Positions 26,920 through 29,796 of a DNA stretch of 64,000 bases are shown piece by piece; position 1 is the stretch's first letter, and every line of letters begins with the position of its first letter. The DNA is taken from the NCBI GenBank assembly GCA_025829515.1, contig GCA_025829515.1_4865.1; one strand, given 5' to 3'. Origin of the DNA: a phage. Made by a program: the position numbers and the translations under genes. The notes under the pieces are model-generated. The model was not told the origin of the DNA and searched no databases. It worked only from the letters and a program-made list of their open reading frames with translations.

Positions 26920-27345
26920 ATGAACAATATAGCATTTACGAAAGACGTTGGCTTACTTCTGAACAACACCATCATCGCTGGCACTAATAACGCTAACTGG
27001 GAAGCGTTAGCACAGCGTCTCAAAGACAAACCGGTGAAAATCGTGGTGACGAGCGAGTTACCGTTAAACGGCACAATGGCAAACTGTGGTCCAATGTTTG
27101 CGGCGTTTAACATCGACTACGATTGCGGCTCCGCTTTCTTACAAAACGCCGCGTTACGTAGCCGTCTGTACAGCTGGCGTTTGCTGGGTCCGGTAAGTAA
27201 GGCCGCTGGCCAGATGGTTAACCAGGGCACACCGATGTCGGGTGTAGAAGACCAGACTATCGCCGTTGTCGTTTCTCGTGCAAGCGGCCAGCTTAACTTT
27301 GCAATCTGCTACGCGTATCAGGAGGAGGAGGAAGCCTGTGTTTAG
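26920..27345 (+). CDS. hypothetical protein
   Basis: GAGGA ribosome-binding site. Confidence 0.5.
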   Translation: MNNIAFTKDVGLLLNNTIIAGTNNANWEALAQRLKDKPVKIVVTSELPLNGTMANCGPMFAAFNIDYDCGSAFLQNAALRSRLYSWRLLGPVSKAAGQMVNQGTPMSGVEDQTIAVVVSRASGQLNFAICYAYQEEEEACV

Positions 27346-28207
27346 TATCGTTCAGCAAGTTCAAGCGGTCGAAGAGTGGTTTCGCAAGACGGATATCTAC
27401 CAACAGAAAGCGACTGAGCGTCAGTTGGTAAAGTATTACGTCACACTCGGCAGGATCTCGGCAGGTGTCGATGAACTGGATAACTTAAAGGTGGCTGCCG
27501 GTATCGGTGAATCGATTTGGACATTTGCCGCGCTGCTACACCTCGGTCCACATTCTAACCTCGGTGATATTGTCGTTCCGTTGAGTGATGCGGTGTCTCT
27601 TCGTACTACAACTGGCACGAAAGAAGGACAACTGCAGCAGCTCATGTTAATTGCAGTCGAGACCGTTAGTGTTGTTTTGCGTGAACCAGAACCTGACCCT
27701 AAGAGTTATAGCGCGCTGCTTCGTAAGTTGATGAGACAGTATCAATTGTTGGCGTGTCGTTGCGGGCTGGAGTTTGACCGTGTTGTTTTTAATGGCCATC
27801 GTAAGCTCGTTAAGACGCCTGAAACGACAAGCACGCTCGGCGAACTGCTCAAAGCATCGTTGCCGTTATCCGACGACGATTTGGCGAAACAAACCTATCA
27901 GGCGGTGTACAAAACCAACGAGTCAGTCCACGACATTATTGTAAATTGCCTTTTGGCCACATCGAATGATTTACAAACCGAACATAACGGTGAAGTCGCC
28001 ATGCCGCAGCTATTGCTGCGGATGGAGGACATTATGAACGAAAAGCTGCAAGAGCTTCTCAAGGCGCACTTTGAACCGTGGATAGTAAGAAAACAAATGT
28101 TGTTCAATCGTAACCCTCGCGTTGATGTTAAGTTCGATGGTAACGCTGTAAACATTTGTGCGAACGACGATTTAAGAGACATTTTGAATTTATTGAAAGG
28201 AAAATAA
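27338..28207 (+). CDS. hypothetical protein
   Basis: GTG 27338 preceded by GGAGGAGGAGGAAG ribosome-binding site (track start 27266 overlaps previous gene). Confidence 0.55.
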
Positions 28208-28209
28208 TT

Positions 28210-29247
28210 GTGAAACAGTATCTTGAGATGATGCAGAACATTCTGGACGAGGGTCATGTTAAGGGCGATCGTACTGGGACAGGGACGCTCTCCGTCTTTG
28301 GTCGCCAAATGCGTTTTGATTTGCGCAAAGGTTTCCCGTTAGTCACGACTAAAAAACTCCACCTGCGTTCTATTATTCACGAACTGCTGTGGTTCCTTAG
28401 TGGCGATACCAACACCAAATATCTGGAAGATAACGGGGTCACAATCTGGCGTGAGTGGCAAGATGAGAACGGTGACCTAGGTGAAATCTATGGTGCGCAA
28501 TGGAGACGTTGGAAAGATGTGAAACTGGTGCCTAAGAAAAATGCAGCTTTACTCGAGAAACTGCAAGATGCAGGATACGTGGATTATGGCGACGCGGACG
28601 ACGGTTCACAAATGTTCGATGCGCGTGTACTTCTGAAACTACACGACCAAATCTCTAAGGTGATTGACCAACTGCGTAACGATCCTGACAGTCGCCGTAT
28701 TATTGTCAGCGCATGGAATGTGGGTGAGTTGGATCAAATGGCGTTAGCGCCGTGTCATGCGTTCTTTCAGTTCTACACTCGTGAGCTGTCTATCGACGAG
28801 CGTCTTGATTGGTTTGAAAAGAACCTTCCAGATCAATTTAACGATTCCCGCTTTAGTAATGAAGCTGTTGCAGACGACGCAGTGTTCCACGTTGAGATGG
28901 ACGCACTTGAAATACCTCGCCGCATTCTTTCATGTCAGCTCTATCAACGCAGTGCGGATTTTTTCCTCGGCGTGCCGTTCAACATCGCGTCTTACGCATT
29001 ACTCGTGCACATGGTTGCCCAGCAGGTTAACATGGTGCCGGGCGATTTCATTTGGACGGGCGGTGACACACATCTCTACTCTAATCATCTGGAGCAGGCC
29101 AAGCTGCAGCTGACGCGTGAGCCGTTACCTTTACCGAAACTGATCATCAAGCGTAAACCGGAATCTATCTTCGATTATAAATTCGAAGATTTTGAGATCG
29201 TTGGGTATCAGTCTCATGAAAAAATATCTGCGCCTGTCGCTATCTAA
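28210..29247 (+). CDS. thyA: thymidylate synthase (ThyA family) with two internal insertions
   Basis: GTG 28210 after AAGGAAA; N-terminal [12 protein letters not shown], active-site PCHAFFQFY, and C-terminal [29 protein letters not shown]...[10 protein letters not shown] matching ThyA as I recall it. Confidence 0.9.
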
Positions 29248-29259
29248 TTAGGAGCGTTT

Positions 29260-29796
29260 ATGGTTGACAACATCGTTCCCTTCAAGCCTAAAGCGGTGGT
29301 TGCTACGGACGAACCGCCGTTTATTCCTGTCAATGGACAGAAGATCATCGAGTTTCCAGACGAACATCGTGGACAACTGCACGTTCCACAACCGGACGGG
29401 ACGATGAAAGCTATCGGTTTCCCGATAGCTGAACAAGAATGGTGGACGCTTCTGGCCATCCAGATGATGTCGCGTGGTCTGGGTGTGTCTACGGAACCTG
29501 TCGTTCGCATTAATACCGACCCGTATATCCACGAACAAGGCAGTTGGATGGAACGACGTCGGACAATGGAGATGCAGATTAGCAAAGAAACGCTTTTGCA
29601 AATCGCAGAATCCACACCTTTCATCCTGACCTCATCTTTTAACGGGGATATGGATGAAGACCTCTACATGCACCTTTCAGGCTTAGCAGCTGAGCACCGT
29701 ATTGCAGAAGAAGAGCCTATCTATACCGAAGCGATGATTATCCATCCGACCGGCTTAGAAGGTAATACCTTTAAACTGATTTGGGTGGAGCTATGA
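29260..29796 (+). CDS. hypothetical protein
   Basis: TTAGGAGCG ribosome-binding site. Confidence 0.55.
   Translation: MVDNIVPFKPKAVVATDEPPFIPVNGQKIIEFPDEHRGQLHVPQPDGTMKAIGFPIAEQEWWTLLAIQMMSRGLGVSTEPVVRINTDPYIHEQGSWMERRRTMEMQISKETLLQIAESTPFILTSSFNGDMDEDLYMHLSGLAAEHRIAEEEPIYTEAMIIHPTGLEGNTFKLIWVEL

Follow-up and report, generated by a model that had tools for sequence, protein, structure and literature searches.

Two lineage-specific inserts in the otherwise canonical thymidylate synthase of a Salmonella jumbo phage

Thymidylate synthase (TS) is among the best-studied enzymes and a drug target, and its dimer interface carries active-site communication. The question raised here is where a phage obtained its copy of this enzyme, and what two long stretches of extra residues in it might be doing. 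The gene, thyA/td, lies in a stretch of 64,000 nucleotides (nt) of phage DNA (contig GCA_025829515.1_4865.1 of assembly GCA_025829515.1), hereafter called the window, and its source is an SPN3US-like Salmonella jumbo phage (genus Seoulvirus, family Chimalliviridae). An initial annotation of the window had proposed a near-host-identical TS core, recently acquired from the host, in which the phage copy carries two insertions of about 44 and 46 amino acids (aa). Our overall reading, which we hold to be probable, is that of a canonical thymidine monophosphate (dTMP) synthase with lineage-specific, non-catalytic interface modules; our confidence is high in the identity of the enzyme, and likewise in the age of the inserts and their distribution.

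The catalytic core and its origin

The assignment to the TS family was borne out by profile, sequence and structure-database searches. The protein matched the Pfam family PF00303 with 382.4 bits (cut-off 24.3), hit TS families only among the PHROGs (phrog_160 at 3.7e-119), and retrieved E. coli TS structures at E = 2e-126 in a PDB sequence search. Compared by BLASTP with E. coli ThyA (264 aa), it showed 201 identities in 264 positions (76%) and 81 gap positions, and the PDB match split into three stretches covering aa 1-102, 146-191 and 240-345. The C-terminal third, initially described as almost identical to enterobacterial ThyA, is indeed similar, but with 83 of 106 residues shared (78%) it falls short of near identity; the three core segments are compared in Table 1.

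When a loss of catalytic residues was looked for, all catalytic and ligand-binding residues were found to be kept, and all except Q165 (86%) were invariant in 21 related phage enzymes. In E. coli numbering, with window numbering in brackets, they comprise R126/R127 (R162/R163), C146 (C182) and N177 (N258), and further R21, E58, W80, W83, Y94, H147, Q165, R166, S167, D169, H207 and Y209. In the numbering of the window enzyme, the nucleophile C182, encoded at 28753-28755, and H183 (E. coli C146/H147) stand in a P-C-H motif that is invariant in the 21 phage homologues. The set that binds the phosphate of deoxyuridine monophosphate (dUMP), R21, R247, R162 and R163 plus S248, is conserved, and the uracil-specific Asn (E. 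coli N177, which is Asp in relatives specific for deoxycytidine monophosphate, dCMP) is the invariant N258. Invariant, too, is the general acid/base network of E58, Y94, D250, H288 and Y290, and both the folate-site tryptophans in IWREW (W80, W83) and the free C-terminal APVAI, which closes the active site, are present. A fusion of dihydrofolate reductase (DHFR) with TS was not indicated, as no DHFR domain was detected by Pfam and the protein begins at the TS N-terminus. Judged from its sequence, the product appears to be an ordinary ThyA-type thymidylate synthase, apparently fully functional.

Phages do employ TS homologues for base modification (PMC7824862), and a MazG-like gene adjoins thyA, so we considered whether the enzyme might yield a modified pyrimidine, as a dUMP/dCMP hydroxymethylase or similar would, instead of dTMP. 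Such altered chemistry is hard to reconcile with a core that is 76% identical to E. coli TS and with the invariance of the Asn at the N177 position, Y94, W80/W83, H147 and the C-terminal APVAI involved in hydride transfer; moreover, both inserts map to the interface rim and not to the active-site lining (see below). Pyrimidine hydroxymethylases of the T4 gp42 and SPO1 gp29 type have a divergent active site, whereas the window enzyme keeps the canonical residues and the C-terminus, and models of dCMP hydroxymethylases matched its structure only remotely (Acj9 gp42, for instance, with a template-modelling score TMq of 0.46). We regard this alternative as extremely improbable.

The proposed recent acquisition from the host did not stand up to comparison at the DNA level. 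Over the alignable part, the gene is 70-72% identical to thyA of all 5,426 complete E. coli genomes and 64-70% identical to thyA of 14 other bacteria, and third-position identity at conserved four-fold codons amounts to 28-41%, which indicates that synonymous sites are saturated. At the protein level, the phage core is 74-77% identical to the enzyme of any bacterium compared, while the ThyA proteins of Klebsiella and Aeromonas share 85% of their residues. The guanine-plus-cytosine (GC) content is flat over the core, the inserts and the flanking phage DNA, so that composition is phage-like throughout. An affinity with the host group is nevertheless visible: mean core identity is 77.6% to Enterobacterales ThyA and 70.1% to that of other bacteria, in a core-only neighbour-joining tree the enterobacterial jumbo-phage enzymes come out as neighbours of Enterobacterales ThyA, and some Enterobacterales signature residues are shared, such as D122 in 19 of 19 phage enzymes. 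However, the grouping of phage and Enterobacterales enzymes received a bootstrap value of only 29% (37% for phage monophyly) and the signature residues are mixed, and no specific donor is therefore claimed. Taken together, we read the core as being of a gamma-proteobacterial (Enterobacterales/Aeromonas-like) type, with an old divergence from bacterial thyA. A recent transfer from the host is ruled out by the 70-72% DNA identity, the saturated synonymous sites and the absence of a GC anomaly. That a host thyA was recently captured and gained its two insertions afterwards is also at odds with the homology of the inserts to phiKZ-type and metagenomic ones, according to which they were not invented in this lineage, and we consider this history very improbable.

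Sequence and distribution of the inserts

The two additional segments, termed inserts B and C (Table 1), have zero identity to E. coli ThyA. The lengths and peptides initially given for them were essentially right (aa 102-145 and 190-239), and the pairwise alignment with E. coli ThyA and phage TSs showed that they are not ordinary host loops. Their absence from host-type ThyA was likewise upheld: the best 80 bacterial thyA matches listed in a GTDB scan of 185,579 species genomes were all 264-277 aa long and had no comparable insert. Insert B is characterized by the motif xD[TV][KR][LI][VI] ... G[YF] ... [KR]xx, and insert C by TRELSxxER ... [IV]PxR (S or T at the fifth position), with E197, R198, P236 and R238 of the latter invariant or nearly so. 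Insert C is acidic, with a net charge of -7 in the window enzyme, a family median of -3 and 80% of inserts net negative. Among the 21 phage enzymes, identity was 23% in insert B and 32% in insert C, compared with 78-88% in the core.

In a search of 5.8 billion proteins, the 120 best matches listed were, all but three fragments, 336-363 aa long and, apart from the exception given next, bear the inserts at the same sites; they mostly sit on contigs of ~220-245 kilobases (kb), and those with a name belong to Erwinia and Salmonella jumbo phages. Alignment of 20 sampled relatives found both inserts in 19, the exception being without insert B. Inserts at the same two sites were also found in the enzymes of phiKZ-like Pseudomonas phages (476-488 aa), plus a third at the site of the Lactobacillus casei TS insertion (site A), and 100 of the 144 usable top metagenomic representatives of 50%-identity clusters have at least 15 extra residues at site C, many of them also at site B. 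Three metagenomic contexts were inspected and all were large-phage-like, one being a 370-kb contig with genes for a T4-type RNA ligase, a topoisomerase and DHFR. Across metagenomic enzymes, sites A, B and C take 15 to 280 residues.

Homology of the inserts was assessed with hidden Markov models (HMMs) built from the enterobacterial phage enzymes only, with shuffled sequences as control. The insert C model scored the phiKZ inserts at 30 bits, compared with a shuffled maximum of 8.6, and ranked 76 of 101 metagenomic inserts higher than 99% of the shuffles. The insert B model was weaker, yet it too exceeded its control: the phiKZ inserts scored 7-8 bits, no shuffled sequence more than 4.5, and 16 of 62 inserts passed the 99th percentile. 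In IMG/VR, insert C was present in 28 of the 80 nearest viral loci, and contigs of at least 200 kb accounted for 15 of these 28 loci versus 6 of the 52 loci without it (Fisher p = 1e-4). These data show that the inserts are ancient, that their position, length and a few motif residues have been conserved, that they are enriched in jumbo phages, and that they long predate this phage. The view that the phage copy itself had gained them is thus not sustained, since they are common to Erwinia/Salmonella jumbo-phage, phiKZ-like and many metagenomic phage enzymes. A literature search found no description of inserts B and C, and this large group of insert-bearing large-phage TSs apparently is new to the literature; the gene itself is already annotated as thymidylate synthase.

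The relative without insert B (P0046, 75% identity) instead has 53 extra residues at the L. casei site, together with a window-like insert C, an arrangement which suggests that the three insertion sites are used combinatorially. Six metagenomic representatives (P0124, P0137, P0148, P0225, P0240 and P0263) have N-terminal extensions of 130-175 aa, which might be fused partner enzymes; that of P0124, the only one scanned, contained no Pfam domain.

Predicted modules and their possible role

Structure prediction, which had been proposed for placing the insertions, was run as an AlphaFold2 monomer prediction from 44 homologues and returned both modules as folded (predicted local distance difference test, pLDDT, 74-94). 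Insert B was predicted as β(101-108)-α(112-120)-β(124-130)-β(137-145), with pLDDT of 74-89 per 10-residue block. For insert C the prediction was a small acidic bundle of four short helices, spanning aa 195-205, 207-212, 217-221 and 223-232, with pLDDT of 85-94. When the model was compared with the PDB by Foldseek, E. coli TS was matched over the core only (TMt, on the target length, 0.84; TMq 0.65); no solved TS structure in the PDB covers inserts B or C, and the insert B and C profiles gave chance-level matches only (E at least 0.06) against all PDB sequences. Among predicted viral structures, in contrast, the enzyme of phage 201phi2-1 superposed with its inserts included at a TMq of 0.82, which, set against 0.65 for the insert-free E. 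coli TS, shows the predicted insert folds to be common to the family.

According to the list of Greene et al. (1993), as quoted in PMC4304848, the 33 interface residues of E. coli TS include W101, T103, P104, Y153, V154, A155 and D156. By this list, 25 of the 33 residues are identical in the window enzyme, and five of the eight differences fall on T103, P104, V154, A155 and D156. That the modules replace residues of this list puts both of them on the rim of the interface of the obligate dimer rather than at the active site. Insert C directly follows the C146-Y153 strand, which nuclear magnetic resonance and crystallography implicate in inter-subunit communication (PMC6514825).

On this basis we propose that the phage's own folate-dependent (ThyA/Td-type) enzyme would methylate dUMP to dTMP for phage DNA synthesis, and that two autonomous-looking predicted modules have been spliced into its complete catalytic core. 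The modules would be non-catalytic and leave the chemistry unchanged, and they may enlarge or remodel the subunit interface or form a phage-specific docking surface beside it. This accessory-interface role is offered tentatively, as a suggestion drawn from residue positions and conservation that could well prove wrong. A more specific version, in which the modules act as a phage-specific interface device that lets subunits pair only with each other, and/or as a docking platform for a jumbo-phage nucleotide-synthesis complex, is speculative and rather unlikely. With the remaining interface 25/33 identical to that of the host on the same list, phage/host mixed dimers might form in the absence of such a device. 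In the related nucleus-forming phage PhiPA3, a fusion of TS with green fluorescent protein was found outside the phage nucleus, in the cytoplasm (bioRxiv 10.1101/2021.04.26.441357).

The inserts also proved to be exchanged among close relatives. Some of these combine a window-type insert B with the insert C of Erwinia phage Caitlin. In phage Lh1B, thyA DNA is 98-100% identical to the window over aa 17-177, 35-50% over insert C, which is of the Caitlin type, and 77-95% afterwards. The inserts evolve fast, as their 23-32% identity shows, and the pattern in Lh1B indicates that they are swapped between phages as cassettes, through recombination in flanking sequence that does not vary. Between the enterobacterial phage enzymes and other insert-bearing enzymes, core identity is only ~58%, though the inserts are homologous, and this may reflect either strongly differing rates or partly separate histories of core and inserts; the Lh1B case shows that a separate history does occur.

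Variation is not confined to the inserts. In each of the five Seoulvirus relatives examined, DNA identity drops from 90-100% in the flanks to 70-82% at aa 77-95 (28440-28500). Within this patch fall the insertion site of the L. casei type as well as codons 89 and 92, for which positive selection in thyA has been reported (PMC6614189). Both Lh1B and SPLA3 have another gene in place of the one upstream of thyA. In SPLA3, an open reading frame (ORF) of the HNH-endonuclease family (phrog_374, E = 2e-25; 'restriction endonuclease' in GenBank) lies upstream and overlaps the thyA start, this ORF (L090:244-603) corresponding to ~27600-28210 of the window, and the N-terminal third of the SPLA3 thyA has only 78-85% DNA identity to the window. 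The SPLA3 pattern would fit endonuclease-driven gene conversion.

Do the inserts themselves derive from mobile elements? An intron, an intein or an RNA element in the window gene was ruled out, as the initial annotation had already held from the continuous frame: the Rfam scan found nothing, Pfam found PF00303 only, with no Hint or endonuclease domain, the PHROGs matches gave no other family than TS, and both segments are predicted to fold. At least 32 metagenomic phage TS representatives (P0121, P0130, P0160, P0171, P0213, P0231 and others) do have in-frame insertions of 130-280 aa, 26 at site B and six at the L. casei site A, which all fall into a single BLAST cluster and hit 'HNH endonuclease' families of the PHROGs (phrog_2081, E ~1e-43), with no Pfam Hint/intein domain found. 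These large insertions resemble domains of endonuclease type set within an unbroken TS frame, and have no counterpart in the window. A visual likeness between insert B and their NUMOD-like tail (a helix, then G-Y/W-x-F) suggested that insert B might be a relic of it, but this was unsupported by profiles: against the large inserts and C-terminal tails, insert B reached at most 3.9 bits in hmmsearch, compared with 4.8 for shuffles, and a probability of 1% in hhalign.

An origin of both inserts as leftovers of inteins, introns or homing endonucleases inserted in frame would agree with thyA being a recombination hot spot in these phages, with the HNH-endonuclease-family ORF directly upstream of it in SPLA3, and with the endonuclease-family inserts at sites A and B of metagenomic enzymes. 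It is contradicted by the fact that the window gene gave no signal for a Hint domain, an endonuclease or an RNA family, by the lack of detectable similarity between insert B and the large inserts, by the lack of any large-insert counterpart for insert C, and by the compact folds predicted for both inserts (44 and 50 aa). We judge such an origin to be quite improbable.

The main competitor of the proposed interface role is neutral decoration, in which the inserts would be tolerated expansions of permissive surface loops that are unlikely to be cleanly removed. TS tolerates 50-residue insertions in its small domain (E. faecalis and S. aureus, PMC6514825; L. casei, by alignment), the insert sequences are hypervariable, sites A, B and C accept widely differing lengths in metagenomic enzymes, and B and C are swapped independently of each other. 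Several further points weigh against an interface function. The independent swapping argues against tight co-adaptation of the two inserts, and high insert turnover is also expected from relaxed constraint on a functionless decoration. Contact of the modules with the partner subunit, or with each other, we infer only from the positions of the replaced E. coli residues, and parts of the core in the AlphaFold model are of low confidence (pLDDT 38-65 at aa 41-100 and 161-180), because the underlying alignment is shallow. Furthermore, knock-down of the phiKZ enzyme had weak effects only (PMC12571901), and under laboratory conditions the phage may do without the enzyme and thus without its inserts.

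Neutral decoration, however, does not readily explain why length, predicted fold and the residues G122, E197, R198, P236 and R238 are kept where the cores are only ~58% identical, why insert C occurs in most of the nearest phage clusters and in none of the sampled bacterial enzymes, or why the acidic bias of insert C is so consistent (80% net negative). It is therefore seen as a serious but less favoured explanation, with perhaps a minor share of the likelihood.

What the inserts would mean depends on which of these applies. If the modules are functional, as in the interface reading, they would provide a natural system for the effects of interface additions on half-sites behaviour and stability, a model for how a virus enzyme avoids mixing with a close host enzyme, and a view into the organisation of nucleotide-synthesis enzymes during jumbo-phage infection. 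If they serve as the pairing or docking device, cassette exchange and turnover would result from the co-evolution of the enzyme with a partner, or with some host factor directed against it. If they are neutral, they are merely a curiosity of protein evolution. The gene further illustrates how invariant core sequence enables the exchange of variable cassettes between phages.

Gene neighbourhood and comparison with known thymidylate synthases

The thyA frame is uninterrupted and nested in a longer mechanical ORF (28156-29247), and its GTG begins 2 nt after the TAA of the upstream gene (28205-28207). Its DNA is 99.6% identical to the annotated thymidylate synthase gene of Salmonella phage SPLA1a and 95.7% identical to that of SPN3US. 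Starting at the GTG gives the N-terminus MKQYLE, which matches E. coli ThyA residue for residue. In the GenBank records of SPN3US, SPLA1a and SaP7, the thyA start is an ATG 18-21 nt downstream of the GTG (28228/28231), which would drop these conserved N-terminal helix residues, each with its counterpart in E. coli ThyA; the records of Lh1B, 1252 and SPLA3 annotate the longer start.

Table 1. Coordinates of thyA, its core segments and inserts, and adjacent features in the window
Feature	Position	Strand	Basis and remarks
thyA/td coding sequence, 345 aa + stop	28210-29247	+	GTG start 28210, TAA 29245-29247
N-terminal core, aa 1-101	28210-28512	+	75% (76/101) identity to E. coli; holds R21, E58, W80, W83, Y94
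Insert B, aa 102-145, small domain	28513-28644	+	alignment; 44 aa for E. coli residues 102-109 (net +36)
Middle core, aa 146-189	28645-28776	+	86% (38/44) identity to E. coli; holds R162/R163, Cys182, His183
Insert C, aa 190-239, hairpin tip after catalytic strand	28777-28926	+	alignment; 50 aa for E. coli V154-K158 (net +45)
C-terminal core, aa 240-345	28927-29244	+	78% (83/106) identity; Q246, R247, S248, D250, N258, H288, Y290, APVAI
Ribosome-binding region AAAGGAAAA	28196-28204	+	read from sequence; AGGA 8 nt upstream of GTG
Upstream co-oriented gene, phage hypothetical protein	27266-28207	+	phrog_10269, 2.7e-112
Downstream co-oriented gene, 178-aa hypothetical protein	29260-29796	+	12 nt past thyA stop; phrog_9376

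Besides its main match, the upstream gene has weak matches to MazG-like PHROGs (7.9e-5 and 9.5e-4), and it could be a candidate partner supplying dUMP. A Pfam search of six neighbouring ORFs, this gene among them, gave no match. In a distant metagenomic phage (L006), a gene similar to phosphoribosyl-ATP pyrophosphohydrolase (PRA-PH)/MazG is also found just upstream of an insert-bearing TS. Downstream, two long antisense ORFs on the minus strand, 29244-29624 (126 aa) and 29248-29601 (117 aa), overlap the downstream gene. They are also open in Lh1B and SPLA3, probably just because the sense gene is conserved.

Compared with characterized enzymes, the window protein shares with E. coli and Salmonella ThyA (EC 2.1.1.45; PDB 2TSC, 1F4B) the fold and the catalytic, dUMP-binding and folate-binding residues, and differs from E. 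coli ThyA by the 81 extra residues in two modules. The closest parallels for these modules are the enzymes of phiKZ-like phages and 201phi2-1 (Chimalliviridae), where B and C stand at identical positions with the related motifs DxR[VI][IV]PK ... RGF and TRELTVDER ... PKR, respectively. The phiKZ-type enzymes are longer, 457-488 aa, with an extra insertion of ~110 aa at the L. casei site and an insert C of ~75 aa, and their cores are only ~57% identical to the window core. T4 Td is likewise a phage-encoded ThyA-type enzyme, but T4-like td genes showed only ~36% identity in tblastn, and at 286 aa (858-nt matches) they leave no room for 81 extra residues. Finer-Moore et al. in 1994 reportedly described lineage-specific surface insertions in T4 Td and proposed them as contacts in a complex synthesising deoxynucleoside triphosphates.

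Eukaryotic TSs have their first insert in the loop that also takes up insert B, following the conserved QWR motif. In human and other eukaryotic enzymes it has ~8-12 residues and is not a folded 44-residue unit, and insert C has no counterpart; PDB matches to human TS also break at aa 192-239. That the variable small domain can take up a large insertion is known from the bacterial TSs of L. casei, E. faecalis and S. aureus, of which the latter two have 50 extra small-domain residues with activity kept (PMC6514825). The 50 additional residues of L. casei TS are found at site A, which is bounded by E. coli residues 83 and 88 and precedes insert B by ~15 residues; by alignment the window enzyme has no extra residues at site A, and L. 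casei-type enzymes have nothing at sites B or C. Insertions into TS are thus known from L. casei, E. faecalis, S. aureus, T4 and eukaryotes, at other sites than those of the jumbo-phage inserts or at much shorter lengths.

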